Of a stretch of DNA of 34,271 nucleotides, positions 16,738 to 32,378 are shown one piece after another. The position numbers and the translations under genes are program-made. The notes under the pieces were generated by a model. It worked only from the letters and a program-made list of their open reading frames with translations, had not been told where the DNA came from and searched no databases. Where the stretch lies: the IMG/VR virus record IMGVR_UViG_2734482775_000003, positions 1 through 34,271 of that record, one strand, 5' to 3'. The DNA comes from a virus (lineage: Duplodnaviria; Heunggongvirae; Uroviricota; Caudoviricetes). Position 1 is the first letter of the stretch. Each line of letters begins with the position of its first letter.

Positions 16738-17538
16738 ATGATTACTCCTGCACAGCAACACTGGCAGAACGTGATGGCACAGCGCGCAGGCCGGGCGAAT
16801 GAAGGCGTGGACCACGCCGCGCGTACCGCGCATGAAGAGGTGCTGTATCGTCTGCGTCTGGCACAGGCCCGGCTTAAGGGCGTACAGGCCAGAAGCGCGA
16901 AAGCCGCCATCAAAAAAGAGTTGTTGCCGGACTTTTCCGGCTGGATTGAGGGAACGCTGGAGGCTGACGGTGGGCAGCAGGATGAAGTGATTGCCACGCT
17001 GATGGTGTGGGCGATTGACTGCGGCGATCTTCCGCTGGCGTTGCGTATTGGTGCGTATGTGGTCCGTCATAACCTCATTATGCCGGATAACTTTGGCCGT
17101 ACTGCTGCCACAGTGCTGACCGAAGAAATCTGCAACCCGGTACTGACGCAGGCCGGGGCGGATGTCGACGCGGATTTGTCCGCCTTTATCGAACCACTGG
17201 ACACCCTCCGGAAGATTGTCACCGACCAGGACATGCCGGACGAAGTACGCGCCAAATTATGCAAGGCGTGCGCCTTTGCCCGTCGTGGTCTGACCGATGC
17301 AGACAACATGGCCTTATCACTGAAGCTGCTGCGCGAAGCGATGCACCTGAACCCGAACGCAGGTGTGAAACGCGAGATTGCAACCCTTTCCCGCGCCCTG
17401 AAAAAAGCCGATTCCGCAGCCGAACCAGAAGACGCCAGCGCACAGCAGGCGCAGGACGAAAGCAGCAAAAGTAAAAAGACAACGCGGAAGCCTGCAACAC
17501 GAAAAACCACCGCGACGCAGAAGGCGAAGCGCGGTTAA
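16738..17538 (+). CDS. M: Terminase small (endonuclease) subunit, P2 gpM family
   Basis: 266 aa directly after the capsid gene; basic C-terminal tail. Confidence 0.85.
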   Translation: MITPAQQHWQNVMAQRAGRANEGVDHAARTAHEEVLYRLRLAQARLKGVQARSAKAAIKKELLPDFSGWIEGTLEADGGQQDEVIATLMVWAIDCGDLPLALRIGAYVVRHNLIMPDNFGRTAATVLTEEICNPVLTQAGADVDADLSAFIEPLDTLRKIVTDQDMPDEVRAKLCKACAFARRGLTDADNMALSLKLLREAMHLNPNAGVKREIATLSRALKKADSAAEPEDASAQQAQDESSKSKKTTRKPATRKTTATQKAKRG

Positions 17539-17553
17539 CGACTGACCCCGTCA

Positions 17554-17627
17554 GCGGGCGGCGTGCGCGGTGTTCCGGTTTGACTCCGTGACCGTTTACA
17601 CCGCGCACCCACCGCCCGATTTTTTTC
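17554..17627 (+). terminator. Long imperfect hairpin plus T-run between M and L (terminator or attenuator-like)
   Basis: GCGGGCGGCGTGCGCGGTGT ... ACACCGCGCACCCACCGCCCG followed by ATTTTTTT. Confidence 0.4.
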
Positions 17628-17640
17628 AGGAGTGAACCCC

Positions 17641-18135
17641 ATGAGTATGGTTGCCAGAAACAACCCCGGACCCGCAGAGGACGACATCACCGATACCGAT
17701 GATGGTGATACCCGTATTTCAGCGGGCGCATTCTGGCCGGATATTGTGCTGCGTGAGCTGCGTCTGGCGATACGACTGCCGGGCCGTGTGACCACCTCCC
17801 GCCTGCTGCATACCGCCACCGGGGCCGTGGCACACGTTACCCGCGAGCTGGAAGCGTGGCAGCAGGAACAGCAGGCGGCTGGCCATCAGACGCTGGCCGA
17901 TGTTCCGGCACCCGTAATTAACGGAGAAAGCGTCAATCTCTGGCACTGGCGCAATGCTGTTTATACCGCCACACGCGCCCTGATTCTGGAGCGTTACCGC
18001 GATGCGGACACAACGGACAAGGGCGACCGCCGGGCGGACGCACTGGATATACAGACATCGGATTTGTGGCGTGATGTGAGCTGGGCCATCTCTGACATTC
18101 TGTGCCGCCCACGAATCTTTGCGGAGTTGTGCTGA
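17641..18135 (+). CDS. L: Head completion/stabilisation protein, P2 gpL family
   Basis: ATG with CAGGAG RBS; size and position match gpL. Confidence 0.8.
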   Translation: MSMVARNNPGPAEDDITDTDDGDTRISAGAFWPDIVLRELRLAIRLPGRVTTSRLLHTATGAVAHVTRELEAWQQEQQAAGHQTLADVPAPVINGESVNLWHWRNAVYTATRALILERYRDADTTDKGDRRADALDIQTSDLWRDVSWAISDILCRPRIFAELC

Positions 18136-18335
18136 TGAAAGTAAAGGCACTGGAAGACGACACCGTGGATTCGCTCTGTTTCCGGTACTACGGCACGACG
18201 CAGGGCGTCACCGAAAAGGTGCTGGATGCCAACCCCGGACTCTGTCAGCAGGTATTTCTGGACGCCGGGCAGGAAGTGGAGATGCCGGAGCCGGAGAAGA
18301 AGAAACGAGAAATGATTCAGTTGTGGGGGGAGTAG
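18135..18335 (+). CDS. X: Tail protein X (P2 gpX-like, 66 aa)
   Basis: ATG overlaps the L stop; size and position as P2 X. Confidence 0.7.
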   Translation: MKVKALEDDTVDSLCFRYYGTTQGVTEKVLDANPGLCQQVFLDAGQEVEMPEPEKKKREMIQLWGE

Positions 18336-18337
18336 CA

Positions 18338-18661
18338 GTGAGCACCATTCAAACAGGGATCACAGAGCAGGTTATTGCGTGGCTCTTTGACCACCTGCCA
18401 ACGGTGTATGCAGTAGGCGCAGCGGTCAGCATTTCCGCGCTGATGAGTCTTTATGACGGACGAACGCTGGTTCAGACCGTAACGGGGTCGCTGGCGTGCG
18501 GCGTTCTTGCCATGACCGTGGCCGGGTCGTTGCGCTTCTTCGGGGTACCTGAAGGTGCTGTGACGTTTATCGGCGCATCTATCGGTTTTATGGGCGCAGA
18601 AAAAGCACGTGACAAGATTATTGCGGCCTTTAATCGCAGGGTGAAGGAGAAGGACGAATGA
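18338..18661 (+). CDS. Putative holin
   Basis: GTG start; about 108 aa with hydrophobic segments and a charged C-terminus (KARDKIIAAFNRRVKEKDE); immediately upstream of the endolysin. Confidence 0.6.
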   Translation: MSTIQTGITEQVIAWLFDHLPTVYAVGAAVSISALMSLYDGRTLVQTVTGSLACGVLAMTVAGSLRFFGVPEGAVTFIGASIGFMGAEKARDKIIAAFNRRVKEKDE

Positions 18662-19050
18662 GCAACACATTTAAATTCAGCAGCCGGAGCGAAAAGAATT
18701 TGCAGGGCGTAAATCCTGATCTGGTGAAAGTGACCCGACGGGCACTGGAAATCTCGGAAGTAGATTTTGGTATCACCGAAGGGTTGCGCAGCCGTTACCG
18801 CCAGAAGCAACTGGTGGCCACGGGTAAGAGCCAGACCATGAACAGCCGCCACCTTACGGGACATGCCGTGGATGTTGTGGCTTATATCGGCAGCCAGGTG
18901 TCATGGGAATGGCCGCTGTACGAAAAAATCGCAGCAGCATTCAGACAGGCCAGCCGGGAACTGAATATTCCGGTGGAATGGGGCGGCGACTGGAAGACCC
19001 TGAAAGACGGACCGCATTTTCAGTTACCACACGGAGCCTATCCGGCATGA
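18658..19050 (+). CDS. Endolysin, peptidase M15 family (L-alanyl-D-glutamate peptidase-like)
   Basis: Zn-ligand-like motifs SRHLTGHAVDV and DGPHFQL; 130 aa; located between holin and spanins. Confidence 0.75.
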   Translation: MSNTFKFSSRSEKNLQGVNPDLVKVTRRALEISEVDFGITEGLRSRYRQKQLVATGKSQTMNSRHLTGHAVDVVAYIGSQVSWEWPLYEKIAAAFRQASRELNIPVEWGGDWKTLKDGPHFQLPHGAYPA

Positions 19051-19454
19051 AGCTCTGGCCCACGCTGGGCGTCGCTTTCCTTCTGATTGCCGCATGGGGA
19101 ACATCCATGCGTCTGTCGTGGTCGCTGGGCCGGGAGAACGCCAGAAACGAAGCGCAGGCCAGCGCCCTGAAAAGTACCGTCGACACCCTGAATATCATCA
19201 GCACCGGGGTGCAGGATATGCAGCAGGTGCTGGCGCAACTCCGCGTGGAAAATCAACAGCGAAATCAGGACGGAGAGGTCAGACGTGAACAGCTACGCAA
19301 CGATATTGCAAAAGATGAATGCGCCCACGCTTTGCCTGACGCTCGTTTTACTGACAGGCTGCGCAGGCACGCAGAACGCGCCACGGCCAGCGCCGTCAGT
19401 CCGGCTTATACCGCAGACGCTGACCATACCGGTAACGCCTCCCCCCTTCCCTGA
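19047..19454 (+). CDS. i-spanin (Rz/LysB-like)
   Basis: N-terminal transmembrane segment LWPTLGVAFLLIAAWG then coiled-coil-like region; start overlaps the endolysin stop. Confidence 0.55.
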   Translation: MKLWPTLGVAFLLIAAWGTSMRLSWSLGRENARNEAQASALKSTVDTLNIISTGVQDMQQVLAQLRVENQQRNQDGEVRREQLRNDIAKDECAHALPDARFTDRLRRHAERATASAVSPAYTADADHTGNASPLP

Positions 19455-19605
19455 TACTCCCACATGGGGAAATTTCGGTATATGGGGCGACCGCCTTCTG
19501 GATGCACTGGAAACCTGTAACGCGGATAAACGGGCCATTGAATTACTGGAACAGCGCAGGCTGCAACGACTGAACAACGAGGATAACAACCATGCTGAAA
19601 ACTGA
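19315..19605 (+). CDS. o-spanin (Rz1/LysC-like lipoprotein), overlapped arrangement
   Basis: Lipobox LLTGC, Pro-rich; starts inside the i-spanin gene in another frame and extends past it. Confidence 0.5.
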   Translation: MNAPTLCLTLVLLTGCAGTQNAPRPAPSVRLIPQTLTIPVTPPPFPDTPTWGNFGIWGDRLLDALETCNADKRAIELLEQRRLQRLNNEDNNHAEN

Positions 19606-20059
19606 TTCCCTGCGTGAAGCCATGACCCGTTCATGCCGATGGTGTCAGGCCAACCCGGAAAAATTCACCATTTTCGTGGAGAGCGGCAACATTGAAACGA
19701 CCGGAGAAACTCCCTCGTTTGTTTACCGCTATCAGATGGTGATGTTTGTCATGGATTACGCCGGGGAGCTGGACGACCTCACGCTGCCGCTGCTGGCGTG
19801 GTTATCCGAAAATCAGCCACAGTTGTTGCTCAACCCTGAGCGTAATCAGGACATCAAATTCTCCGCCGTTATCAATGACGATGACAGCGCCGATCTCCTG
19901 TTTATGCTCCCCCTGCGGGAACGCGTTCGCATCACGCGCAGCAGTCAGGGCACACCGCAGGCAGAACACCTGCCGGAGCCAAAACCCCGCCTGCCATCTT
20001 CCGAAGGCGACTGGTCGCATGTATTCCAGGATGTGACGTGGGGTGAAAGCGATGGATAA
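19592..20059 (+). CDS. R: Tail completion protein, P2 gpR family
   Basis: 155 aa, position between lysis genes and S as in P2. Confidence 0.75.
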   Translation: MLKTDSLREAMTRSCRWCQANPEKFTIFVESGNIETTGETPSFVYRYQMVMFVMDYAGELDDLTLPLLAWLSENQPQLLLNPERNQDIKFSAVINDDDSADLLFMLPLRERVRITRSSQGTPQAEHLPEPKPRLPSSEGDWSHVFQDVTWGESDG

Positions 20060-20687
20060 GGCATTCACCCGCGTGGATGAAACCTTTGAGGCTATCCGCG
20101 ACAGCCTGAATCAGCAGGCCATCAATAACATCGCCAGAAAGCTGGCACAGGATTTACGTCGCGCCCAGCAGGCACGTATCCGGTCACAGAAAGCGCCGGA
20201 CGGGACTGCATGGACACCACGCAGACGCCGCGTAACCCGGATACAGGAGCGCATTCGCTTTATCTGGAATAACGAAGCACGCACGCTGAAAAACTGGCAT
20301 CACGACACGGGGAAATACGGGCGAACCATTACCGGGTGGGATGAGGATAAAAACAATATCCGCACGTTTTACCGGGATGACATCGACCGTTTTCTGGAAA
20401 TACGCACCAGGCGCATCAACCAGGACAGCACAAAGCGCGTCCCCATGTTCGTAAAACTGCGCACCGCCCGCTACCTGAAAGCCCGTGCAGATGCTTCCGG
20501 TGTGACGGTGGGTTACAGCGGCGTGGCCGCACGTATTGCCCGCGTTCATCAGTTCGGTGAGCGCGATCAGGTTGCGCCGGGCATTTTCACCGATTACCCG
20601 GTACGTGAGCTGTTGGGTATCAGCCAGGCAGATGAGCGCCTGATTTATAACACGGTGCTGGGCCGGATTGCGGAGGCTGTACGGTGA
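20052..20687 (+). CDS. S: Tail completion protein, P2 gpS family
   Basis: ATG at 20052 overlapping the R stop; position as in P2. Confidence 0.7.
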   Translation: MDKAFTRVDETFEAIRDSLNQQAINNIARKLAQDLRRAQQARIRSQKAPDGTAWTPRRRRVTRIQERIRFIWNNEARTLKNWHHDTGKYGRTITGWDEDKNNIRTFYRDDIDRFLEIRTRRINQDSTKRVPMFVKLRTARYLKARADASGVTVGYSGVAARIARVHQFGERDQVAPGIFTDYPVRELLGISQADERLIYNTVLGRIAEAVR

Positions 20688-21265
20688 GCGCTGAACTCAT
20701 GCGACTGCTGAGCAACATCATCCGTACCGGGATCATCTCTGAAGTTGATGAGGAATCCTGGTGCGTGCGCGTTCGCAGCGGCGAACTGGAAACAGGCTGG
20801 CTGCGCTGGAACACCACGCGCGCGGGTGCCTTCAATGTGTGGTTGCCGCCATCACCCGGCGAACAGGTGGTAATTGCCTGCATCGGCGGCAACCCGGAAA
20901 CCGCCATGATAATTGGCAGTCTGTGGAGTGATGCCATTCCGGCACCCGGCAAAAGCCTGAAAGAAATCGTGGTCAGCGCGCCGGATGGCGCGGTGTTCCG
21001 CTACGACGCGGACGCAGGCGCACTGAGCGCCAGCGGCATGAAAACGGCCACCCTGCAGGCATCCGTCAGTGTGACACTGGACACACCTGTCGTGGAATGC
21101 ACAGACCTTCTGAGAACAGCGACGCTTGACGTCACAAAAGGAGGAAAGATGAGCGGCAATATCACGCACAGCGGCGGCAACTTCACCTCAAACGGCATTA
21201 CCGTGCATACGCATAAACACGGTGGCGTGAAAGGCGGCAGCGATTCGACAGGAGGCCCGCAGTGA
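20684..21265 (+). CDS. V: Baseplate assembly/spike protein, P2 gpV family
   Basis: 193 aa, overlaps S stop; precedes W-J-I as in P2. Confidence 0.85.
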   Translation: MSAELMRLLSNIIRTGIISEVDEESWCVRVRSGELETGWLRWNTTRAGAFNVWLPPSPGEQVVIACIGGNPETAMIIGSLWSDAIPAPGKSLKEIVVSAPDGAVFRYDADAGALSASGMKTATLQASVSVTLDTPVVECTDLLRTATLDVTKGGKMSGNITHSGGNFTSNGITVHTHKHGGVKGGSDSTGGPQ

Positions 21266-21612
21266 CAACCCGCTACACAGGAATGAATCCGGACGGGACG
21301 GGAAACCTGAACGATATGGAGCACCTGAAACAGTCAGTCAGGGATATCCTGACCACCCCGCTGGCAAGCCGGGTTATGCGACGGGAATATGGCAGCCTTG
21401 TGCCTGATTTGATTGACGAACCCATGAATAACACCACGCGTCTGCAATGCATGAGTGCTGCCGTGATTGCGCTGACACGATGGGAACCCCGCATTGCCCT
21501 GGATGCCATCGACGTTGTCTGGAAAGCGGGAGGCCGCGCCGGGGTGACGCTGTCGGGCACTGTCATGCAGACCATGCAGAATGTTGAGTTAACCATCACG
21601 CTGAGGGAGTAA
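21262..21612 (+). CDS. W: Baseplate protein, P2 gpW (gp25-like)
   Basis: 116 aa; position. Confidence 0.8.
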   Translation: MTTRYTGMNPDGTGNLNDMEHLKQSVRDILTTPLASRVMRREYGSLVPDLIDEPMNNTTRLQCMSAAVIALTRWEPRIALDAIDVVWKAGGRAGVTLSGTVMQTMQNVELTITLRE

Positions 21613-21615
21613 ATC

Positions 21616-22512
21616 ATGCCCGCCGTTGACCTTTCCCAGTTACCGGAACCCGCCATCATCGCGGAGCCTGACTTTGAGGCAATTCTGGCTGACACAAAGG
21701 CCATGATGATTGCGGCTTATCCCGCCGAACAGCGTGAAGCCGTCTCCGCCGCGCTGGAGCTGGAATCGGAACCCCTGAACGTTATCGCTCAAACCATGTC
21801 GTTTCGTGAAATGCTGTTACGCCAGCGGGTCAATGAGGGTGCACGCGCCTGCATGTTAAGCCACAGCGCCGGGACAGACCTGGACAACCTCGCGGGCAAT
21901 ATGAACACAAAGCGCCTGGTTATCACTCCGGCAACGGATACCACCGACGCGGTGATGGAGAGCGACACCTCGCTGAGACTGCGGGCGCAGCGGGCGTACG
22001 ACGGCCTGAGTGTTGCTGGCCCGTCAGGTGCATACGAGTATTTTGCCCGCAGCGCCAGCGGTCTGGTGCGCGATGCGCGGGCTATCAGTCCGTCTCCGGC
22101 CTGTGTGACGGTTTCCATCCTGTCCACTGAAGGCGACGGCACAGCAACGGAGGCGTTGCTTAATACCGTTCGCGCCGTTCTGAATGCAGAGGATACCCGC
22201 CCGGTGGCCGACCGCCTGACCGTACAGAGCGCCAGAATCGTGACATGGCGGCTGAATGCAAAACTGTACTTTTACCCCGGCCCGGAATCCGAACCTATTC
22301 TGGCCGCGGCTGAATCGTCGTTCAGGAAGTGGCTGGCTGAACAGGGGCTTATCGGTCAGGACGTGGCGTTGTCCGCCATTGCTGCCGCACTGCATGTGCA
22401 CGGTGTGCAACGCGTGGAGATAATCGAACCCACACAGAATATGGCCATCAGCGACATACAGGCGGCGCGCTGTGAGTCATTCACCATCAGCGAAGGTGGA
22501 CGCAATGAGTAA
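21616..22512 (+). CDS. J: Baseplate protein, P2 gpJ family
   Basis: 298 aa; position. Confidence 0.85.
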   Translation: MPAVDLSQLPEPAIIAEPDFEAILADTKAMMIAAYPAEQREAVSAALELESEPLNVIAQTMSFREMLLRQRVNEGARACMLSHSAGTDLDNLAGNMNTKRLVITPATDTTDAVMESDTSLRLRAQRAYDGLSVAGPSGAYEYFARSASGLVRDARAISPSPACVTVSILSTEGDGTATEALLNTVRAVLNAEDTRPVADRLTVQSARIVTWRLNAKLYFYPGPESEPILAAAESSFRKWLAEQGLIGQDVALSAIAAALHVHGVQRVEIIEPTQNMAISDIQAARCESFTISEGGRNE

Positions 22513-23113
22513 TTCGTTGTTACCACCATCAGCCAGCAATTTCATGCGTTGTGCCGAAGCCGTCGGAACACGCATTACAGACATTCCGGTAGACCTCAAC
22601 ACGCTGTGGTCGCCGGACACCTGCCCGGTGCATCTGCTGCCTTATCTCGCCTGGGCGTTTTCCGTTGACCGCTGGGATCGCAACTGGCCGGAAGAGACAA
22701 AGCGACAGGTGATTCGTGATGCATGGCTGATACACCGACACAAAGGGACCATCAGCGCACTGCGAAGAGCCGTGGAGCCTCTCGGCTACCTGATTGAAGT
22801 AAAGGAGTGGTGGCAACTCAACGAGGAGCCAGGAACATTTCGCATTGTTGTCGGAGTACTTGATCAGGGCATCACCGATGAAATGTATCAGGAACTTGAG
22901 CGCCTTATTGCGGATGCAAAACCAGTAAGTCGCCATCTGACGGGGCTGGCGATCAGCCTGAGTGTGAACGGAAAGATTTTCGTTGGTACGGGATGCTATC
23001 ACGGCGATGCCCTGACGGTTTATCCCTACACCCCGGAGTCCATTATTGTCGAAGGGGATTATTTCCCTGCCCCGGCCATTCATTTAATTGATAATCTGAG
23101 AGTAAACGCATGA
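22505..23113 (+). CDS. I: Baseplate/tail-fibre attachment protein, P2 gpI family
   Basis: ATG at 22505 overlapping the J stop; position. Confidence 0.8.
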   Translation: MSNSLLPPSASNFMRCAEAVGTRITDIPVDLNTLWSPDTCPVHLLPYLAWAFSVDRWDRNWPEETKRQVIRDAWLIHRHKGTISALRRAVEPLGYLIEVKEWWQLNEEPGTFRIVVGVLDQGITDEMYQELERLIADAKPVSRHLTGLAISLSVNGKIFVGTGCYHGDALTVYPYTPESIIVEGDYFPAPAIHLIDNLRVNA

Positions 23114-24723
23114 CAGTGAAATACTACGCCATTCTGACTAATCAGGGCGCGGCACGACTGGCTAACGCGACGATGCTCGGCAGTAAGCTGAATCTGACGC
23201 AAATGGCCGTTGGTGATGCAAATGGTGTGTTACCAACACCAGACCCTGCACAAACAAAACTGATTAACCAGAAACGCATTGCACCGCTGAATCTTCTGAG
23301 TGTTGACCCTAACAATCAGAGCCAGATTATTGCGGAGCAAATCATCCCTGAAAACGAGGGAGGATTCTGGATCCGTGAGATTGGTCTTTATGATGATGAA
23401 GGTGTACTCATTGCGGTGGCAAACTGCCCGGAAACGTACAAACCGCAGTTGCAGGAAGGCAGTGGACGCACCCAGACTATCCGCATGATTCTGGTTGTCA
23501 CGAACACCGAAGCCATCACGCTGAAAATCGACCCGTCTGTGGTTCTGGCAACCCGCAAATATGTGGATGATAAAATCTCAGAGCACGAACAGTCACGACG
23601 TCACCCGGACGCCTCGCTGACCGTAAAAGGTTTTACTCAGTTAAGCAGTGCAATTAACAGTGAATCAGAAACACTGGCCGCAACACCGAAAGCGGTTAAG
23701 GCTGCATATGACCTGGCTAACGGGAAATATACCGCCCAGAACGCCACCACTACACAAAAAGGAATTGTTCAGCTCAGTAGCGCCACGAACAGCACGTCTG
23801 AAACGCTGGCAGCGACACCAAAATCTGTTAAGGCGGTAATGGATGAAACGAACAAGAAAGCACCATTAAACAGCCCGGCACTGACCGGAACGCCAACAAC
23901 ACCAACAGCGCCACAGGGGACTAATAGTACCCAGATCGCAAGCACGGCTTTCGTTATGGCCGCGATTGCCGCACTTGTAGATTCGTCACCTGATGCACTG
24001 AACACGCTGAACGAACTGGCTGCGGCGCTGGGCAATGACCCGAATTTTGCGACCACCATGACTAACGCGCTTGCGGGTAAGCAACCGAAGGATGCCACCC
24101 TGACGGCGCTGGCAGAGCTTGCTACATCAGCAGATAAACTCCCATATTTTACAGGGGCAGATCGTGCCGCGTTAACCGCGTTGACAAGTGTTGGACGTGC
24201 CATTCTTGGTAAAACCAGCACTCAGGGAGTTCTTGATTACCTTGGTTTAGGGGAAGGCTCTGCGCTGCCTGTTGGTGTGCCTGTTCCATGGCCTTCAGCC
24301 ACACCGCCAACAGGCTGGCTGAAATGCAACGGTGCGGCTTTTTCTGCTGAAGATTACCCTAATCTGGCAAAGGCTTACCCGACGTTAAAATTGCCTGATT
24401 TACGCGGTGAGTTTATTCGTGGCTGGGATGATGGAAAGGGAGTGGATAGTGGGCGAACTCTGCTTTCAGCACAAGGAGATGCTATCCGAAACATTACCGG
24501 GGTGGTTGGCTACAGTTCAATTGGCGATTCACAAGGGTTATTAGGATACGTGTCAGGGGCCTTTTCGGCTTCGGAGTCAAAAGCTCCCGCATTAAGTGGT
24601 GCATCAGCATCCGGGTATCAACGCTCCCTGTATGCGAATTTTAATGCTTCAGCCGTTGTCCCAACCGCAAATGAGAACCGCCCACGTAACATTGCCTTTA
24701 ATTATATTGTGAGGGCTGCATAA
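23110..24723 (+). CDS. H: Tail fibre protein, P2 gpH family; C-terminal part lies inside the invertible segment
   Basis: N-terminus and repeated SSATNSTSETLAATPKAVKA blocks match P2 H as recalled; hix-like crossover site lies within the codons for LDYLGLGE. Confidence 0.9.
   Translation: MTVKYYAILTNQGAARLANATMLGSKLNLTQMAVGDANGVLPTPDPAQTKLINQKRIAPLNLLSVDPNNQSQIIAEQIIPENEGGFWIREIGLYDDEGVLIAVANCPETYKPQLQEGSGRTQTIRMILVVTNTEAITLKIDPSVVLATRKYVDDKISEHEQSRRHPDASLTVKGFTQLSSAINSESETLAATPKAVKAAYDLANGKYTAQNATTTQKGIVQLSSATNSTSETLAATPKSVKAVMDETNKKAPLNSPALTGTPTTPTAPQGTNSTQIASTAFVMAAIAALVDSSPDALNTLNELAAALGNDPNFATTMTNALAGKQPKDATLTALAELATSADKLPYFTGADRAALTALTSVGRAILGKTSTQGVLDYLGLGEGSALPVGVPVPWPSATPPTGWLKCNGAAFSAEDYPNLAKAYPTLKLPDLRGEFIRGWDDGKGVDSGRTLLSAQGDAIRNITGVVGYSSIGDSQGLLGYVSGAFSASESKAPALSGASASGYQRSLYANFNASAVVPTANENRPRNIAFNYIVRAA
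24230..24255. other. hix/gix-like recombination site (left), inside H
   Basis: TTCTTGATTACC-TT-GGTTTAGGGGAA; 12-2-12 architecture; reverse complement has central AA matching the right site. Confidence 0.65.
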
Positions 24724-25325
24724 TGGATAACGCTGTATTAAATAGCGAGATTATTGCCACGAAGGCAGGGAATATTACCGTCTATAACTATGATGGTGAA
24801 ACACGGGAATATATTTCCACTTCAAATGAATATCTTGCCGTTGGTGTTGGTATCCCGGCATATTCCTGTTTAGATTCACCAGGCACATATAAGGCTGGTT
24901 ATGCTATCTGCCGTTCTGCAGATTTTAACTCATGGGAATATGTGCCAGACCATCGCGGTGAAATCGTCTATAACACCGAAACGGGAGAAGCCAAAGAAAT
25001 CACAACTCCGGGTGATTACCCTGAAAATACAACCACTATCGCCCCGTTAACGCCATACGATAAATGGGATGGTGAGAAATGGGTGACCGATACTGAGGCA
25101 CAGCACGGCGCAGCAGTAGATGCAGCAGAAGCACAGCGCCAGTCGCTGATTGATACTGCAATGGCCTCCATCAGTCTGATTCATCTGAAATTACAGGCCG
25201 GACGGAAGCTGACGCAGGCAGAAACAACCCGCCTTAACACTGTGCTGGATTACATTGACGTGGTGACGGCAACAGATACCAGCACAGCGCCGGACGTCAT
25301 CTGGCCTGAACTGCCGGAGGCGTAG
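24723..25325 (+). CDS. G: Tail fibre assembly protein (P2 gpG-like), active orientation
   Basis: 200 aa; start overlaps the H stop. Confidence 0.8.
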   Translation: MDNAVLNSEIIATKAGNITVYNYDGETREYISTSNEYLAVGVGIPAYSCLDSPGTYKAGYAICRSADFNSWEYVPDHRGEIVYNTETGEAKEITTPGDYPENTTTIAPLTPYDKWDGEKWVTDTEAQHGAAVDAAEAQRQSLIDTAMASISLIHLKLQAGRKLTQAETTRLNTVLDYIDVVTATDTSTAPDVIWPELPEA

Positions 25326-25737
25326 GCCATTCAATATCTGGCGCACCGGAAGTATCGACCAGTTCCAGTGCGTCCAGATAATCCAGCCACAAATTATATT
25401 GCGCCAGTTCCTCACCTTTCAGGCGACCAATCGCCGCTTTACCAGGCCATTGCTTACTGTTTATGTATTCGTTGACCTGATTAATCAATTGCTGCTTTTC
25501 CAGTTCGGCTGCGGCAATTTGTTCCTCATGAGTTGGCGGTGGAATATCAATCCATGCAGGCATTCCGTCGATGACACCTCTGTATTTTCCTTCTGGTGCT
25601 TCCTTCATAAATTCGGCGGCAACAGTGTCGTCAATTTCGATTCCATCATCGGGCCATTCGCCGGATTCCTGATAAGCGATTTTAAGCTCCACAGGGAAAA
25701 ACGCATTTTTATCGGCACTGAAAATATATTTCTGCAT
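25297..25737 (-). CDS. Alternative tail fibre assembly protein (G'), silent orientation
   Basis: 146 aa on the opposite strand, convergent with and overlapping G; tail-fibre-assembly-like C-terminus (DTSGAPDIEWP, compare G: DTSTAPDVIWP). Confidence 0.7.
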   Translation of the reverse strand: MQKYIFSADKNAFFPVELKIAYQESGEWPDDGIEIDDTVAAEFMKEAPEGKYRGVIDGMPAWIDIPPPTHEEQIAAAELEKQQLINQVNEYINSKQWPGKAAIGRLKGEELAQYNLWLDYLDALELVDTSGAPDIEWPTPPAVQAR

Positions 25738-25739
25738 TT

Positions 25740-26096
25740 CTACCGTCCTATCGAAATATAACTGAATCTGTATTGCTGTGAGATATCACTGGTTGCCACA
25801 CGCCACGCTGAATTACTGATATGTTCAAAATTTACAGACAAAACCTGCGGGGCAGGATTCGACGGGTCTGACTGAACGGCATCAGACATAACACTGACTG
25901 AAACCATCGGCTGATTAGGGAATGGTATAGGGAAGTGTCCACTGATAAAGCGGGTCGTGTTTCCTGAAAAAGTGCCAAACTGAACAATATATCCACCTGG
26001 TAGCCTGAACCATCCCGAACCAGAAGCGAATGCTCCCATATCCGGTATCTGATTATCTCCTGTGCCCACATCCCTTTTCGCCGCTTCTCCCAAACC
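25740..26096 (-). CDS. Alternative tail-fibre C-terminal cassette (H' variable part); promoterless, expressed only after inversion
   Basis: Minus-strand reading frame continues through the right hix site encoding ...NVGLGEAAKRD..., in frame with H ...YLGLGE at the left site; track ORF 25740..26138 covers it. Confidence 0.65.
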   Translation of the reverse strand, partial: GLGEAAKRDVGTGDNQIPDMGAFASGSGWFRLPGGYIVQFGTFSGNTTRFISGHFPIPFPNQPMVSVSVMSDAVQSDPSNPAPQVLSVNFEHISNSAWRVATSDISQQYRFSYISIGR

Positions 26097-26109
26097 AACG
26101 TTTAAGAAA
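26084..26109. other. hix/gix-like recombination site (right)
   Basis: TTCTCCCAAACC-AA-CGTTTAAGAAAA; resembles Hin hixL TTCTTGAAAACCAAGGTTTTTGATAA as recalled. Confidence 0.7.
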
Positions 26110-26165
26110 ATGCAGAGATTACGGCTAACTGGCATCATCCCCGGTTTTTATTCAGGGGATCCATC

Positions 26166-26765
26166 ATGCTTATTGGCTATGTCCGCGTATCAACAAATGA
26201 CCAGAATACAGAATTGCAGCGTAACGCGCTGGAGTGCGCAGGATGTGAACTGATTTTTGAAGATAAAATCAGCGGAACGAAATCAGCCAGACCGGGATTG
26301 AAAAAACTGCTCAGAACGCTATCAGAAGGAGATACGCTGGTTGTCTGGAAGCTGGACAGACTGGGCAGAAGTATGAAACACCTGATCACGCTTATTGAGG
26401 AATTGCGGGAAAAAGGTGTTAATTTCCGTAGTCTGACGGACAGCATTGACACATCAACACCCATGGGGCGTTTCTTTTTTCACGTCATGGGAGCTTTAGC
26501 CGAAATGGAACGTGAATTAATTGTAGAGCGTACACTGGCCGGGCTGGCAGCAGCACGCGCACAAGGACGCATTGGCGGACGTCGCCCGAAGTTGACAAAA
26601 GAACAACACGAGCAAATAGCGAGGCTGATTAAAAACGGTCATGACAGGAAACAACTGGCGATCATTTACGACATCGGCATATCGACGATTTATCGTTATC
26701 ACCCTGTAGGCGATATACAGGCTGAAGAAACAACCAGGCAGATTCAGGAAAATGAAAACCGCTAA
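26166..26765 (+). CDS. Serine DNA invertase, Hin/Gin/Cin/Pin family
   Basis: N-terminus MLIGYVRVSTNDQNTELQRNALE with catalytic Ser; LDRLGRS motif; C-terminal HTH (GISTIYRY); 199 aa. Confidence 0.9.
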   Translation: MLIGYVRVSTNDQNTELQRNALECAGCELIFEDKISGTKSARPGLKKLLRTLSEGDTLVVWKLDRLGRSMKHLITLIEELREKGVNFRSLTDSIDTSTPMGRFFFHVMGALAEMERELIVERTLAGLAAARAQGRIGGRRPKLTKEQHEQIARLIKNGHDRKQLAIIYDIGISTIYRYHPVGDIQAEETTRQIQENENR

Positions 26766-26791
26766 TCTGACCATTAGCGGTTTTGCGTTAA

Positions 26792-27286
26792 TCAAAACAG
26801 CCCTTTAACGGAGCTGGCCGCGCTGTTAAGGGATGATGTGACCTTATCTTTGAAGCCGGACAGCATATCACTGAACGATGAGGATTGCAGGCGCTCCCGC
26901 AAATCCTCATCACAGCGTTCAAGAGTCAGTGAAAATTCTATCTTTTTCGCCTTACCGTAGCGATCAAACTCGGAGCGGGTCGTATTCGTTTCAGTCAGTA
27001 CATACATGCCGTAAATCTGTCCGACGCCATCAATCAGAGGCCAGGGGCGTCCTGTATACGCCTGCGTGGTCAGCAGCGACAGCGACACTTCGCCACCTGT
27101 GATTTCAGGATAAAGCACACCAGAAAGCACGATGCGATCATCGCCTGCCCCGATATACTGCCAGCTTGCTGAACGGTTAACGCGTTCATTTTTCACATGC
27201 CGCCAGCTTTTATTTTGCTGTAACTGCTGATGCGGCAATGTGCGCAGCTCAAAAACAAACATGCCGTAGATCATCATCATGGCCAT
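26792..27286 (-). CDS. U: Tail protein, P2 gpU family
   Basis: 164 aa starting MAMMMIYGMFVFELRTLPHQ, the characteristic gpU N-terminus. Confidence 0.8.
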   Translation of the reverse strand: MAMMMIYGMFVFELRTLPHQQLQQNKSWRHVKNERVNRSASWQYIGAGDDRIVLSGVLYPEITGGEVSLSLLTTQAYTGRPWPLIDGVGQIYGMYVLTETNTTRSEFDRYGKAKKIEFSLTLERCDEDLRERLQSSSFSDMLSGFKDKVTSSLNSAASSVKGLF

Positions 27287-27292
27287 GACTCC

Positions 27293-30109
27293 TCAATCTT
27301 TATCGTAAAAACTGCCACGTCCGGCACGGTCGCGTCGTTCCAATTCTGCCCTGACCATTTCACCGACCAGTTTCGCCAGTTCGCGGGGATTCTGCGTAAC
27401 AACGTTATGCAGATGAACATGAATTTCACCGCCAAATCCGGAGACAGCAGGCTCCCGATTACGGGAAGCTGCAGGAACTGATGCCACTGGCGATCGTATG
27501 GCCTCCGCCACCGGGCGGGAGCTGGCCGCAACAACAGGGACCAGCGCCGGAGGCAGAGGAGTCGGGACCACGGGTGTGATGTTGATTGCGGAAGCAGGCT
27601 TACTGACCTGCGCAATCTTCCGCTCCTGCCACTCCCCACGAACGGCAAGTGCGCGGGGCAGGTTCTTAAAGACAATATCGCCGGGGCCAATACGTTTTTT
27701 CGTCTCATCAACCAGCTTACCTGTGTTATCAGCAATTTTGCTGAGTCTGCGTAGCGTACCGGTATTGCTGTCTGTGAGCGGTTTGTTGTCTTTGGGTTTA
27801 TCACCTCCGGTGCCATTGCCATTTTCCACAGGCTTCGGCGGATTGATTTTCGCCAGGTCCCCCTGAAGCAAGGCAACCTTGTCCTGAAGAATGGCCGCAC
27901 GCTGTGCGTCTTCGATTTTCTTGCGCGCCCTTTCCGCTTCATCCGGAAGCACACCGAGCTTTTCAAGTATCCACGCCAGCGTATCCAGCAACATTTTTGC
28001 AGGTGTCAGAACAAGTTGTAACGCACCGCCAAGAACGTTACCGAATATCTCGCCAGCACTGGTACATTTATCCAGCGTTTCCTTGCTGGACTCCATCGGT
28101 GACAGCAGCGATTTAAACCAGTTAAACACCTGGCTGATCCCGCTTCCGATTACGTCAAAAACAGGGCCAAACCGTTCAAAGGTTTCGCGCAACGGGGTCA
28201 GCCTTTCCATAATCCCGCCGAACACCCCGGCAAAAAATGCCCTGATGGGATCCCAATATTTCCAGATAAGAATGGCAGCTCCGGCAAGCGCAGCCACGAT
28301 AAGACCAACCGGACTGAACAGCGCCCCGATAGCACCTCCCAGCAAAGAAACGGAACCCGTCACCATTCCCCATAGTGCTGGCAGGACCCTGACAGCATTC
28401 ATTGATCCGGTCAGGAGGGAAAAACCAAGACGCAGTTTTGCCAGCGGACCAGCAAGCACACCAATAGCCAGCGACAACGAGCCAACCGTTGCAGTCATTG
28501 CCAGCAACGCACCGCCTGCTATCAGTAGCTGGCGCGTCAGTGCGGGATGGGCCTGCGCCAGCGCCGTCACCTTTGATACCACACGCGTGAGCCACTGCGT
28601 GACAGAACGCAGCGGACCGTCAATCAGATCTGCAATGCGGATGCGCAACCCTTCCCATGCACTGCCGAGTGATTTCAGATCGCCGTCAAGGTTGTTGGCC
28701 ATAACCTTTGCTGTGCGTTCAGCCTCACCGCGCGCGCCTTCAAGTTCTTTTCTCAGTTTGGGTAAGGACCCGTCACCCGCTGCATCAACGAGCGCCATAA
28801 ACGATGTGAAAGCCTCTTCCCCGGCGATGTCCTTAAAGAAGGATACCCGGTCAACTTCCCCGTATTTGCGGGTGGCTTTATAAAGGTCGGCCAGCACATC
28901 CTCCATCGGGCGCATTTTGCCGTTCGCGTCAGAAACTGCCACACCAAGCTCTTTCAGCGCCTCTGCTGCTGCCTTTGGCGGTGATGCCAGACGAGCCAGG
29001 CTGGCACGCATTGCCGTCCCGGCATCACTCCCTCTGATACCCATATTCGCCAGCACGCCCGCCATCGCTGCGGCCTGCTCCAGCGATATTCCCAGCTTAC
29101 CCGCCACCGGACCTGCATATTTCATGGTTTCGCCCAGTGCGCGAAGGTCAGTGTTGGTACGGGTAAACGCTGCGGTGAGTGTGTCACCAACCCGGTCCAT
29201 CTGGTCAGCAGAAAGGCCGAACTGCGTCAGGATATTTGAGCCAATATCCGCCGTCTCGCCGAGATCCATGCCGCCAGCCGTTGCCATGCTCAGCACGCCC
29301 GGAAGCGCAGCCTGAATGGCCTGCGGTGTGAAGCCAGCCATTGCAAGAAATGCCTGTCCACTGGCGGCATCGCCTGCGGTGAACTGCGTTTCAGAGCCAA
29401 GTTTTAACGCCTGCTCACGCAGCGCCTTAAACTGTGGGCTGTTCTGATCGATTCGCGTCAGTGCCTGAACGCGGGACATCTCTTTCCCGAACCCGATCGC
29501 AGGCTGCAAAAAACGCCCGGCAGCATAGCCGCCAGCCGCTGCCGCACCAATTGCCAGCGCACCACCTGTTTTCAGTTTTCCAGCAGTTTCCTGCGCGCGC
29601 GAATACCGCTCACGCGCCCGCGTTACACGCGCAAGCGTCTGCCGTTCGCGTTCAAGCTGGTTGTTGTACTGTTCGGTGCGTCTGATGGCCTGCTGGATGG
29701 TGTTATCGCTGCCTGTCAGGGAAATGCCGTGGCGTTTCAGCTCTCCGCCAAGCTCCCGCATTTTCTGAATTTCCCGTGTGCGCGATTCATTCAGGCGTTC
29801 AAGCCGGGTGCTTAACTGCTGCATCAGCTTTTGTTGTTTTTCGCTGAGCACTGTACCCGTGCGTTGTAACTGATTAAGGGCGTTAAGCTGGCGTCGTGCT
29901 TTCACGATGCTCGCATCCGCTTTACTGACAGCGTCACGGGCGCGCTCAAATGAACGCGCCTGACGCTCGAGATTTTTGATCGCCCCCTGCGTTCGCTGGA
30001 TGGAGTCACCAAACTGCCCCATCAGGCGGCGGGCGTTTTCGGCAGGCCGGGTCAGTCTGTCAACGGCGCTGAAAGCGACCCGGATATCAAGAGTCTTCAT
30101 TGTCTGCAT
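27293..30109 (-). CDS. T: Tail tape measure protein, P2 gpT family
   Basis: About 940 aa, Ala/Gly-rich with multiple hydrophobic segments; start uncertain (ATG at 30109 or the track's GTG at 30136). Confidence 0.85.
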   Translation of the reverse strand: MQTMKTLDIRVAFSAVDRLTRPAENARRLMGQFGDSIQRTQGAIKNLERQARSFERARDAVSKADASIVKARRQLNALNQLQRTGTVLSEKQQKLMQQLSTRLERLNESRTREIQKMRELGGELKRHGISLTGSDNTIQQAIRRTEQYNNQLERERQTLARVTRARERYSRAQETAGKLKTGGALAIGAAAAGGYAAGRFLQPAIGFGKEMSRVQALTRIDQNSPQFKALREQALKLGSETQFTAGDAASGQAFLAMAGFTPQAIQAALPGVLSMATAGGMDLGETADIGSNILTQFGLSADQMDRVGDTLTAAFTRTNTDLRALGETMKYAGPVAGKLGISLEQAAAMAGVLANMGIRGSDAGTAMRASLARLASPPKAAAEALKELGVAVSDANGKMRPMEDVLADLYKATRKYGEVDRVSFFKDIAGEEAFTSFMALVDAAGDGSLPKLRKELEGARGEAERTAKVMANNLDGDLKSLGSAWEGLRIRIADLIDGPLRSVTQWLTRVVSKVTALAQAHPALTRQLLIAGGALLAMTATVGSLSLAIGVLAGPLAKLRLGFSLLTGSMNAVRVLPALWGMVTGSVSLLGGAIGALFSPVGLIVAALAGAAILIWKYWDPIRAFFAGVFGGIMERLTPLRETFERFGPVFDVIGSGISQVFNWFKSLLSPMESSKETLDKCTSAGEIFGNVLGGALQLVLTPAKMLLDTLAWILEKLGVLPDEAERARKKIEDAQRAAILQDKVALLQGDLAKINPPKPVENGNGTGGDKPKDNKPLTDSNTGTLRRLSKIADNTGKLVDETKKRIGPGDIVFKNLPRALAVRGEWQERKIAQVSKPASAINITPVVPTPLPPALVPVVAASSRPVAEAIRSPVASVPAASRNREPAVSGFGGEIHVHLHNVVTQNPRELAKLVGEMVRAELERRDRAGRGSFYDKD

Positions 30110-30308
30110 TCCCGCTGCGAAGTGCCGCCCGCTCACGCCAGCTAACCACTTCGCCGGGCGTCATCATGAAGATTTCGGCGGGCGACCAGTTAAAAATGGC
30201 GGCAATATCCGCCACCAGATCTTCGATGTGCTCAAAGCACACCAGGGTGATTACGCTGCCGTCTCCTGCACGCTCTTCGCGCCAGAGTCTGGCTCGCTCA
30301 TAAAATTT
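30087..30308 (-). CDS. E' extension reached by -1 programmed frameshift from gpE (E+E' fusion)
   Basis: ORF in the -1 frame overlapping the E 3' end; slippery heptamer A-AAT-TTT (minus strand, about 30302..30308) lies after the last -1-frame stop. Confidence 0.6.
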   Translation of the reverse strand, partial: KFYERARLWREERAGDGSVITLVCFEHIEDLVADIAAIFNWSPAEIFMMTPGEVVSWRERAALRSGNADNEDS

Positions 30309-30625
30309 ACAGCCACAGCGCACAACTGAATAAAATCGCGTGACGACATTTTTTTAATCATCACTTCATCCAGTCGTGGCGAGGTCACGCGAGGCAACAG
30401 CGTGAACATGGTATCCGCTTTCAGATTCAGCACATCAGACAGCGACAGACCACGCAGAGATCCAGCCTGCTCAATAGCCCCGGTAATTTCCACATACGTG
30501 ATTTTTTCGCCACCGCGCTCAATTGGTCGGGCCAGTTTTACGCCACGTTCGACAGCCATATCCTCACCTGCCGTCACATCATCCGCCACGGCGTTATTCC
30601 GGGTTTCAGTATTGATGTTTTGCAT
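30251..30625 (-). CDS. E: Tail assembly chaperone, P2 gpE family
   Basis: 124 aa; position between FII and T; motif GSLRGLSLSDVLNLKADTMFTLLPRV resembles P2 E. Confidence 0.75.
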   Translation of the reverse strand: MQNINTETRNNAVADDVTAGEDMAVERGVKLARPIERGGEKITYVEITGAIEQAGSLRGLSLSDVLNLKADTMFTLLPRVTSPRLDEVMIKKMSSRDFIQLCAVAVNFMSEPDSGAKSVQETAA

Positions 30626-30681
30626 CAGTTGTCTCCTTTTTCAGTCAGAGGCGACGCACTGCGCCGCCTGCATATTACTTA

Positions 30682-31194
30682 TCAGCCAAGCCCAAGCGCG
30701 GAACGGATGCGATCAGGCACGATGTCCTTGCCGTCCTTCCGGTAGATGTGGTTCAGCAGGTCGATTTCCCACAGCGGACGATCGTTAACGCTCAGCTTGT
30801 AGTAGGTGTTTTTGACAGCGTAAGTGTGTGATGTGGCTTCGCCCTGTTTGGCTTCCCCCATATCAATTTCCGTCACACGCCCGCGCATCTCGATTTCATA
30901 CAGATCACTTTCTGCATCGGTGTAGTATTCACCCGCAAAACGCAGCAACGTGCCGTCAATCGTGCCGCCATATTTAAGGAACAGCTCACGAACTGCGCCC
31001 CCCATGACAAAACTCGCATCAAGCGCAGAATCATCAAGACCGAGGTCGATACTCACCGCCCCCATCATGCCACCGCCACGATAGCTTTCAGTTTTGCGCG
31101 TCAGTTTAGGTGGAGTGACGGACGTCACCTTACCCACTTCGTTTTCACCATTCACAAACAGCGTAAAAAAGCGAAGATGTTTTGGTACAGCCAT
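30682..31194 (-). CDS. FII: Tail tube protein, P2 gpFII family
   Basis: 170 aa directly downstream of the sheath gene. Confidence 0.85.
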   Translation of the reverse strand: MAVPKHLRFFTLFVNGENEVGKVTSVTPPKLTRKTESYRGGGMMGAVSIDLGLDDSALDASFVMGGAVRELFLKYGGTIDGTLLRFAGEYYTDAESDLYEIEMRGRVTEIDMGEAKQGEATSHTYAVKNTYYKLSVNDRPLWEIDLLNHIYRKDGKDIVPDRIRSALGLG

Positions 31195-32378
31195 CAGACA
31201 CCTCCCAACACCGCAAATGCGGGATCAAAGTATTCATCAGTAAACGTCTGGTAAAGCTCCATATCTTCCAGCGGAGGAACAGGCGTATATTTGTAGCGAA
31301 TACGCACACGCCCCTGACGTAAATCCGTGGTGCTGTTATCCACCACGTCATACCAGCACGACGCGCCAATCAGTTTCCCGGCAGTAACCAGTGAATCCAG
31401 TTTTGCCCTGATGGCACTGATAACATCCTTCACGTTCGCAGGCGTCAGTGGACTGTCGATGGTTTCAAACTGCGCTTCCGCAATTGAATCAGCCAGTACC
31501 TGTGCGGTTCGGGTATACACCTCAAAGATGTAGGCGTTCGTTTCCGGTGTGCGGTTGCCCCAGAAGCGGAACCCGTTGCGACGAATAATGGTCGTGATTT
31601 CTTTGTTGTTAAGGCTGTTGGCATCGCTGTCTTCGGCCTGCAACGACCAGAACACATGCCGGGACATCCCCAGCACATTTTTAACCGGAACGTTGGACAG
31701 TGATTTGTGCCAGCCCTGCTCATGGTCAATGTACGCACGAAGGCCGCACGCATAAGCAGGCGCGGGGAACGTTTCGTTTTTGCCACTTTTCGGGTTGTAG
31801 GCGATGAAGTCCGGCCATAAGAGCATCACCTCACGTTCGTTGAATTTCTGGCGGTAGGTAATTGCCTCTGCCATCGTGTTACAGCCATGACATGAGGCAT
31901 ACACAAACGCGCGCAGCTTACCCGCAATCACGCACAGGGATTTTGTCACCGCCTCCGTGTCCAGCTCCGGCGCGGCCAGAATACGCGGACGGTATCCGAT
32001 GCTTTCATCCTGCTCTGCAACAAGCAGCGCATACATTCCCGTATAGCTGCCGTCATCCTCAGAACCACCGATAACCAGTTGATCCTGCGTCTTTCCGTCT
32101 TCTTCTTTGTGTTCAGCCACGCGAACGACGATCACCTTTGTGCTCACCTGGTCTGCGATGGCCTTAAGCGCACGATAAAGCGTCCCCGTTGTCCCGCATT
32201 TCCCCAGCACGTCATTGACGCGGGTCAGCAGTGTGGGCTTGTTCAGCGGGAACAGCTTCGCGTCCGCATCATCCGCCGTTGCCACGATACCGATAACGCT
32301 GGAATCAACATCGTTAATCGCTGTTACCAGGTCGGTATTTTCCGTAACACGGGCACCATGAAAACGAGTTTCACTCAT
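31194..32378 (-). CDS. FI: Tail sheath protein, P2 gpFI family
   Basis: 394 aa; first gene of the leftward tail operon. Confidence 0.9.
   Translation of the reverse strand: MSETRFHGARVTENTDLVTAINDVDSSVIGIVATADDADAKLFPLNKPTLLTRVNDVLGKCGTTGTLYRALKAIADQVSTKVIVVRVAEHKEEDGKTQDQLVIGGSEDDGSYTGMYALLVAEQDESIGYRPRILAAPELDTEAVTKSLCVIAGKLRAFVYASCHGCNTMAEAITYRQKFNEREVMLLWPDFIAYNPKSGKNETFPAPAYACGLRAYIDHEQGWHKSLSNVPVKNVLGMSRHVFWSLQAEDSDANSLNNKEITTIIRRNGFRFWGNRTPETNAYIFEVYTRTAQVLADSIAEAQFETIDSPLTPANVKDVISAIRAKLDSLVTAGKLIGASCWYDVVDNSTTDLRQGRVRIRYKYTPVPPLEDMELYQTFTDEYFDPAFAVLGGV

Follow-up and report, generated by a model that had tools for sequence, protein, structure and literature searches.

A probable Gin/Cin-type inversion switch of the tail-fibre tip in a P88-type P2-like prophage of E. 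coli

The window analysed here is the whole 34,271-nucleotide stretch of DNA, and it carries an E. coli prophage of the P2-like, P88-related kind (Peduoviridae). The morphogenesis and replication genes typical of P2 (gpA, Q, P, V, W, J, I, H, G, FI, FII, E, T, U, D, ogr, int, and cox) are represented, with Pfam matches that include Phage_GPA, Tail_P2_I, Baseplate_J, Phage_P2_GpU, Phage_GPD, and Phage_Cox. With int at one end, ogr at the other, and a full set of P2-type morphogenesis genes, the prophage seems complete, and its DNA is 95.8% identical to that of P88 across 77% of the first 25 kb. In the tail module, two alternative ends of the fibre gene and their chaperone genes lie between a pair of 26-bp sites, beside a serine DNA invertase gene (Table 1).

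Table 1. Features of the tail-fibre inversion locus, with positions counted in the window
Feature	Position	Strand	Remarks
Constant part of tail-fibre gene H	23110..24242	+	aa 1-378, ends ...GVLDYL; fixed in both orientations
Left 26-bp recombination site	24230..24255		TTCTTGATTACC-TT-GGTTTAGGGGAA; core TT at 24242-24243
Variable fibre C-terminus A	24243..24723	+	aa 379-537, 159 aa; Pfam Collar domain at aa 389-436
Tail-fibre assembly protein G (cassette A chaperone)	24723..25325	+	200 aa; Pfam Caudo_TAP, E 2e-31
Second assembly protein G' (cassette B chaperone)	25297..25737	-	146 aa; Pfam Caudo_TAP, E 1e-34
Variable fibre C-terminus B	25740..26097	-	118 aa, GLGEAAKRD...SYISIGR; Pfam Gp53-like_C
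Right 26-bp recombination site	26085..26110		TTCTCCCAAACC-AA-CGTTTAAGAAAA; core AA at 26097-26098
Serine DNA invertase, Gin/Cin/Hin subfamily	26166..26765	+	199 aa, intact; just outside segment
Candidate recombinational (Fis) enhancer	26236..26311		putative; 5' part of invertase gene
Perfect 12-bp-stem hairpin	26755..26784		between converging invertase and gpU genes

The gpH open reading frame (23110-24723) encodes 537 aa, and its constant part, which contains the Pfam Phage_tail_fib N-terminal domain and fibre repeats, is 99% identical among relatives of either orientation. Being fused to H at present, cassette A is the expressed form in this orientation, and cassette B is silent until inversion joins it to H. 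The start codon of G overlaps the stop codon of H, and G' shows only 33% identity to G over 80 aa. The B tip is 100% identical in Salmonella and Klebsiella P2-like phages. The A tip is a less common variant, whose best full-length match in the phage collection, the HK106/HK97 side tail fibre, reaches 69%. No specific family was found in NCBIfam for the fibre or chaperone proteins, and PADLOC found nothing in the cargo open reading frames. Since the two tips come from unrelated families (Collar and gp53-like_C), they are likely to recognise different receptors.

It had been proposed that inversion would join the constant N-terminal part of gpH in frame to an alternative C-terminus and swap in a second assembly protein. 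When the segment was inverted in silico at its core dinucleotide, exactly such a product resulted, an in-frame alternative fibre H' of 496 aa, and a second Caudo_TAP gene does lie in the opposed cassette. The native junction sequences are CACTCAGGGAGTTCTTGATTACCTTGGTTTAGGGGAAGGCTCTGCGCT and CTTTTCGCCGCTTCTCCCAAACCAACGTTTAAGAAAATGCAGAGATTA, and those of the flipped form are CACTCAGGGAGTTCTTGATTACCTTGGTTTGGGAGAAGCGGCGAAAAG and AGCGCAGAGCCTTCCCCTAAACCAACGTTTAAGAAAATGCAGAGATTA. As in the Mu G and P1 C segments, the constant fibre N-terminus lies outside the segment and two opposed in-frame C-termini lie inside it, each alternative tip having its own chaperone encoded by one of two opposed Caudo_TAP genes.

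The sites were located by direct reading and by a search with the consensus TTNYNNNAWACCNNGGTWTNNNRNAA, which was built from the Mu gix and P1 cix sites only and allowed at most one mismatch. Exactly two matches were found in the 34-kb window, both of them these sites, compared with 0.01 expected from shuffled sequences. The sites are gix/cix-like with cores TT and AA and are therefore inverted; the two cores are mutually reverse complementary, as religation requires. The left site lies within gpH and spans the codons V-L-D-Y-L-G-L-G-E, the minus-strand reading of the right site is ...FLNVGLGEAAKRD, and the core of the latter is 68 bp upstream of the invertase ATG. The spacing between the two centres, which equals the invertible segment, is 1855 bp. 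The original prediction of a ~1.85 kb segment with inverted 26-bp hix-like sites, the left one in gpH at the LDYLGLGE codons and the right one read on the minus strand as ...NVGLGEAAKRD, was borne out in its coordinates, its readings, and the proposed alignment to the gix/cix consensus. A repeat search seeded at 9 nt missed the two sites, the exact stretch common to both being too short for it. A shufflon-like (Rci) arrangement, which needs a tyrosine recombinase and at least three sfx repeats, was considered and rejected, as only two sites and no third are present in the window and the recombinase is a serine enzyme.

The invertase gene is transcribed away from the segment, as is gin in Mu. 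The expectation of a serine invertase adjoining the segment proved right: its product combines a Resolvase domain (Pfam, E 6e-52) with HTH_7 (E 1e-12), has the nucleophilic Ser9, and is not a pseudogene product. Residues S9, R42, K46, K47, R50, M114, Q150, R153, and L154 are all present. The protein matches the Gin structures 4m6f and 3uj3 over residues 1-186 with an E value of 1e-91 (4m6f: 1.4e-91), whereas the match to gamma-delta resolvase reaches only 1e-31, placing it closer to Gin, Cin, and Hin than to the resolvases. It is ~75% identical to P1 Cin and 97% identical to an invertase of EPEC E2348/69. The Fis/enhancer-contact residues uniquely conserved in dependent invertases have been reported as Hin K47, K/R48, K/R51, Q151, R154, and L155 (PMC3798978), and all of these are found in the present enzyme as K46, K47, R50, Q150, R153, and L154 (Hin numbering minus 1). 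Moreover, M114 is the wild-type residue and not the enhancer-independent M114V. Nucleotides 71-100 of the gene form a DNA block that is nearly invariant across the window, gin, cin, and P88, and a profile of 22 non-redundant invertase genes shows a weak dip in synonymous diversity at codons 25-36 (0.26 vs. 0.38 overall). A strict Fis-motif regular expression had no match in the window's invertase gene, and a relaxed G-N13-C scan returned many candidates, with no conserved pair at 48-bp spacing. Dependence on Fis and the enhancer is inferred, as are the rate of inversion and a host-range difference between the two forms. The hairpin between the converging invertase and gpU genes is likely a bidirectional terminator.

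The original prediction would have fallen had only one orientation ever been detected across many reads or isolates; both were found. Queries of 4.2 kb in native and flipped form matched 23 and 21 complete E. coli genomes, respectively, at a coverage of 80% or more; in close relatives, the two orientations are about equally frequent. A contig of GCA_033870015.1 is 100% identical to window positions 17110-30000. The O157:H7 genomes FRIK944 and BB24-1, both complete and closed, are identical over 10,234 bp except for a precise inversion of 1884 bp, with 0 mismatches after flipping and with breakpoints inside the homologous sites; the O157:H7 prophage is 96.6% identical to the window across the switch. 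In flipped relatives, the strand-switch boundary maps to window positions 24242-24256. The predicted 496-aa H' is present verbatim in 1 public genome, on an NCBI contig of 167,620 bp, with an identical constant part and an identical B tip, and 8 public contigs encode the native 537-aa H without any change. As expected for the Din family, the segment thus inverts in identical or near-identical relatives. An exact search of IMG/VR for the A-cassette junctions (native left and flipped right) found none, as the cassette A variant is itself absent from that collection. One candidate for an exact-flip pair, L007 and L029, was rejected in favour of the O157:H7 pair, as 1380 mismatches remained after flipping and cassette A differs.

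With all structural elements and both orientations confirmed, the interpretation by analogy with Mu G and P1 C is supported, and the locus is very probably a Gin/Cin-type (Fis-dependent "Din" family) inversion switch of the receptor-binding tip of the tail fibre in a P88-type prophage. In the proposed mechanism, invertase dimers would bind both 26-bp sites and bring them into synapsis; both sites would then be cut at the central TT/AA dinucleotide, and rotation by 180 degrees followed by religation would flip the 1855-bp segment. In the present orientation, H aa 1-378 would continue into the Collar-type tip of cassette A, followed by chaperone G, and after inversion the same N-terminus would continue in frame into the gp53-like tip of cassette B, followed by chaperone G'. 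A lysogen population could in this way release two kinds of virions with different receptor specificity. Judging from identical or near-identical relatives, the switch is almost certainly active in this prophage.

There is a slim chance that the locus is a frozen relic, in which the architecture has been inherited, the sites or the invertase are dead, and orientation A alone is produced. The left site invites this reading, as its inner half carries two synonymous differences from the form of most relatives (GGTTTAGGGGAA vs. GGTTTGGGAGAA) and its outer half ATTACC, a weak match, is one base off the AAACC core, as is AAACG in the outer half of the right site; the excess of contigs with native H over the single flipped H' points the same way. 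However, both substituted inner-half bases (A at +3 and G at +6) occur in functional Mu gix and P1 cix sites, the deviating outer halves of the two sites likewise have counterparts among functional sites of Mu or P1, and the same weak outer half ATTACC is found in the cleanly inverted O157:H7 pair. In addition, the invertase has its full length and retains every catalytic and regulatory residue, 100%-identical copies of its gene adjoin segments of both orientations in IMG/VR relatives (L006 and L007 vs. L011), and the exact H' fusion exists in a sequenced genome.

Even less probable is that the two orientations arose by RecA-dependent recombination between short inverted repeats, or as assembly artefacts, with no involvement of the invertase. 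Draft contigs that often break within the segment, and an odd join in contig L088 that is not at a site, would fit such an origin, but the inverted sequence that the two sites share spans only about 14 bp. A stretch of this length is too short for efficient RecA recombination. Moreover, the breakpoints lie exactly in the 26-bp sites of complete closed genomes, and the cores covary in 32 of 32 related site pairs (TT/AA in 28 and TC/GA in 4), a constraint specific to serine-recombinase religation. More than 30 related loci have this right site at an unchanged spacing from the invertase, an intact Gin-like invertase always lying 81 bp from the right-site start.

Cross-action among Din invertases is established. 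A role that mainly serves the host, either by trans action on other invertible segments or through fibre-derived proteins that block superinfecting phages, has some precedent in Fin of Fels-2, which has the Salmonella H segment as a target (cited in PMC12529663), in the PinQ-driven inversion of cryptic-prophage fibre genes that inhibits T2 adsorption (PMC12529663), and in the several related loci that most E. coli genomes hold (median 2 places per genome). It is nevertheless the least credible of these readings, as the prophage looks complete and shares 96% identity with P88, an inducible phage, and the cassettes lie within a structural gene, that of the fibre, in a tail module that is functional, so that a role in the virion is the simplest and any host role would be additional.

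Apart from the fibre-tip switch itself, it is conceivable, though improbable, that the invertase and its sites recombine with invertible segments of other prophages in the same chromosome, thereby shuffling receptor-binding cassettes between unrelated phages (P2-like and Mu-like) or rearranging the chromosome. In contig L088 (GCA_021213515.1), which may be either a chimera or a true inter-prophage recombinant, a hybrid 26-bp site links the B cassette of the window prophage to Mu-type genes and another Gin-like invertase. By analogy, such inter-prophage activity might also give the lysogen a defence against phages, as reported for PinQ (PMC12529663).

The closest classical parallels are the G segment with Gin in Mu and the C segment with Cin in P1. 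In Mu, the elements follow one another as in the window (5' constant part of the fibre gene, site, Sv-U, opposed U'-Sv', site, and invertase), and its sites and those of the window fit the same 26-bp consensus. However, at 1.86 kb the segment of the window is shorter than that of Mu (about 3.06 kb), its sites have a TT/AA (cix-like) core dinucleotide instead of TC/GA, the Collar and gp53-like tips are unrelated in type to those of Mu, and the carrier is a P2-like myovirus and not a transposable phage. With P1, the window shares the TT/AA core, nearly identical inner half-sites (TTCTCTTAAACC in P1; TTCTCCCAAACC and TTCCCCTAAACC in the window), and alternative fibre ends that are each paired with a chaperone. 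The P1 C segment is about 4.2 kb and has long inverted repeats (PMC12529663). Unlike the invertase of the window, which points away from the segment, cin is transcribed toward it, with cixL overlapping the cin 3' end.

Among P2-like phages, P2 itself lacks the switch, as had been correctly stated, whereas P88 (Xuanwuvirus, Peduoviridae) has the same layout, J-I-H-G-G'-H'-invertase followed by an inverted U-T-E-FII-FI block. The P88 segment is larger and Mu-like, with site starts about 3.07 kb apart, cores of TC/GA, and a right site identical to gix, and its cassettes differ from those of the window. For P2-like prophages of EPEC E2348/69, Goldberg et al. 2014 (PMC4272514) measured the coexistence of both orientations by PCR and sequencing; one locus of this strain has three sites and four variants, compared with only two sites in the window. 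Inversion at the fin locus of the P2-like prophage Fels-2 is likewise described (PMC7953296). The device is already known from published work (PMC4272514, PMC7953296, and bioRxiv 10.1101/2024.10.15.618418), and the switch in the window leaves current understanding unchanged. The original description of a notable module was overstated, the module being common in P2-like (Peduoviridae) prophages, annotated in P88, and previously reported.

The locus represents a textbook bet-hedging device, which would provide two receptor specificities among the virions of one lysogen. The two tip-plus-chaperone cassettes offer ready-made swappable modules to those who engineer tailocins or phages for therapy. 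For annotation, the minus-strand 132-aa "gp53-like" open reading frame should be read not as a gene of its own but as the alternative, silent end of gpH, and the state that was sequenced may decide whether H is called as 537 aa or 496 aa. For assembly, such segments break short-read contigs, and draft contigs often end inside the segment.

The segment bounded by the two sites contains two distinct tip-plus-chaperone cassettes, as the assembly proteins (chaperones) G and G' are only 33% identical across 80 residues and tips A and B belong to different Pfam families. In the window, H ends in the tip of cassette A (tip A and G), and cassette B (tip B and G') lies on the minus strand. The original prediction had placed a serine invertase beside a segment of about 1.85 kb bounded by inverted hix-like sites; the invertase was recovered as an ORF, and the centre-to-centre spacing of the sites is 1855 bp. 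By using a consensus built from Mu gixL/R and P1 cixL/R alone (the window's sites were left out to avoid circularity), exactly two matches with at most one mismatch were found when both strands of the 34 kb were searched, where 0.01 would be expected, and these are the left and right sites at the predicted places. Their plus-strand cores indicate that they are inverted relative to each other.

Features of the switch region and of the prophage ends
Feature	Position	Strand	Description
int	1-1023	-	one end of prophage
H, tail-fibre gene, 537 aa	23110-24723	+	ORF; Pfam P2-type fibre N-terminal domain, fibre repeats, Collar domain
Left site	24230-24255		TTCTTGATTACC-TT-GGTTTAGGGGAA, over H codons V-L-D-Y-L-G-L-G-E
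G, assembly protein, 200 aa	24723-25325	+	ORF; Pfam Caudo_TAP
G', assembly protein, 146 aa	25297-25737	-	ORF; Pfam Caudo_TAP
Tip B ORF, 132 aa	25740-26138	-	ORF; Pfam Gp53-like_C fibre tip
Right site	26085-26110		TTCTCCCAAACC-AA-CGTTTAAGAAAA, minus-strand reading NVGLGEAAKRD
Invertase, 199 aa	26166-26765	+	ORF; Pfam Resolvase + HTH_7
Ogr-like zinc-finger gene	33679-33939		other end of prophage
Third site-like match	about 6475 (L062, L065, L070, L071, L074, L079, L083); 3936 (L073)		in some relatives

Among relatives, the cores were reverse complements in all 32 site pairs (TT/AA in 28, TC/GA in 4), and religation of the 2-nt overhangs needs complementary cores (mechanism summarised in PMC1904230). 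In its inner half (window 24247-24255, GGTTTAGGGGAA), the left site shows two synonymous differences from the GGTTTGGGAGAA of most listed relatives, and both variant bases are also present in Mu or P1 sites. In some relatives, a third weak site-like match (two mismatches, core TT) lies downstream of the invertase, at a distance of about 1.4 kb. Besides, in some E. coli genomes (matches H82-H84) the matched region spans 5-8 'phage tail protein' genes, which suggests multi-cassette variants resembling the three-site EPEC locus (PMC4272514).

When 24243-26097 was inverted in silico with the cut at the core dinucleotide, residues 1-378 of H were joined in frame to the minus-strand tip, generating a 496-aa fibre (H'), and G' started 2 nt after it. 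Both the proposed fusion of the constant N-terminal part to an alternative tip and the swapping in of a second assembly protein were reproduced in silico. A Gin/Cin-type conservative site-specific inversion, which would switch the receptor-binding tip together with its chaperone, is the best explanation and very probably correct, and the tip switch may be expected to affect host range.

Mu Gin crystal-structure sequences match invertase residues 1-186 (E 1e-91; resolvases are far weaker, 1e-31), and identity to P1 Cin is about 75%. S9, R42 and wild-type M114 are all retained. So are K46, K47, R50, Q150, R153 and L154, six positions that McLean et al. (PMC3798978) report to be uniquely conserved in Fis/enhancer-dependent invertases, and this signature is therefore present at the protein level. 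At the DNA level, a conserved block was found at gene nt 71-100, synonymous diversity shows only a weak dip at codons 25-36, and a scan for Fis motifs gave many candidates but no convincing pair. The window's switch is predicted to depend on Fis and an enhancer.

The window molecule is known as one sequence, and both states were sought in public sequences. The native 4177-bp query was found in 23 complete E. coli genomes with coverage of 80% or more on a single strand, and the query flipped in silico in 21 by the same criterion. Both orientations were also common among 80 IMG/VR contigs retrieved by the invertase. That the switch is a frozen relic in this prophage is unlikely; a 100%-identical invertase gene occurs in two window-like contigs (L006, L007) and in a flipped one (L011), and an exact look-up in a public protein collection found H' itself verbatim, encoded on a single NCBI contig (167,620 bp), with native H (537 aa) in eight. 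A prophage with 96.6% identity to the window is present in O157:H7 strains FRIK944 and BB24-1, and over 10,234 bp the sole difference between the two strains is an 1884-bp inversion, with no mismatches once flipped and with breakpoints within the homologous 26-bp sites. In the IMG/VR contig L029, the strand switches at window 24242-24256 and 26084-26101, the positions of the left and right sites. Neither RecA-dependent recombination nor an assembly artefact is a likely source of the two orientations. Three draft contigs with an identical H gene (L089, L090, L091) end within the invertible segment, and about 20 of the 80 IMG/VR contigs (loci L008-L078) terminate no more than 2 kb upstream of the invertase; such breaks could arise if the sequenced cultures contained both orientations or if cassettes are repeated.

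The switch was correctly read, yet it was already known. Inversion has been experimentally measured in P2-like prophages of EPEC E2348/69, which has one locus with two sites and another with three (PMC4272514), and an invertase of this strain is 97% identical to that of the window. Fels-2 shows the same tail-fibre inversion with an adjoining fin (PMC7953296), a recent survey described DNA invertases in the P2-like Z/fun hotspot, together with inversion of neighbouring genes (bioRxiv 10.1101/2024.10.15.618418), and homologous genes are annotated by RefSeq in thousands of E. coli genomes. The one feature particular to this element is the pairing of the rarer Collar-type tip A with the recurrent tip B.

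The window comprises a whole prophage with P2-type genes throughout, and a mainly host-directed role of the switch is unlikely. Its host is E. coli, as window 17110-30000 recurs at 100% identity in one contig (L087, GCA_033870015.1). Among named phages, P88 (Xuanwuvirus, Peduoviridae) is the closest, with 95.8% identity across 77% of the first 25 kb; its annotation shows the same gene order J-I-H-G-G'-H'-invertase and inverted U-T-E-FII-FI block. As proposed, the layout matches the Mu G segment; the invertase gene lies beyond the segment and is transcribed away from it. P2, in contrast, has Z/fun at the corresponding position, and neither an invertase nor a site was found in its 14-30 kb region, in agreement with the original prediction, which took P2 to have no such switch. 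The tail module FI-FII-E-E'-T-U (26792-32378, minus strand) is inverted relative to H-G, to gpD (32404-33636, plus strand) and to the P2 order. The same inversion in P88 and the O157:H7 prophage indicates a lineage trait, and a consensus search of the window found no hix-like site at the module borders. Two cargo genes are present. One, at 8708-9667, lies between gpA and the portal gene and encodes a ParM-like plasmid-segregation ATPase (StbA_N and ParM C-terminal domain, E 1e-81); the other, at 3936-4766 within the early region, encodes an SPFH/Band 7 protein. PADLOC defence models gave no match to either.

The best full-length phage matches of tip A (159 aa) are the lambdoid HK106/HK97 side tail fibres (66-69%), with none above 69% in the phage collection, and megablast matched its distal part (window 24459-24669) to nothing in L006 and L007, the closest relatives in IMG/VR. 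Tip B occurs at 98-100% identity in about twenty phage records from E. coli, Salmonella and Klebsiella, including P2-like phages. This distribution is typical of horizontal cassette exchange, that is, ordinary cassette mosaicism. One further contig (L088, GCA_021213515.1 ABEHSD010000027.1) tracks window 17110-25091 and then, around positions 7980-9730 of the contig, carries a different Gin-like invertase (193 aa, minus strand), a hybrid site (TTTCCAAAAACC-TT-GGTTTGGGAGAA) and window 25082-26115 in reverse complement, along with Mu-type Mor/GemA genes. The contig represents either a chimeric assembly via shared chaperone sequence or a cassette exchange between prophages.
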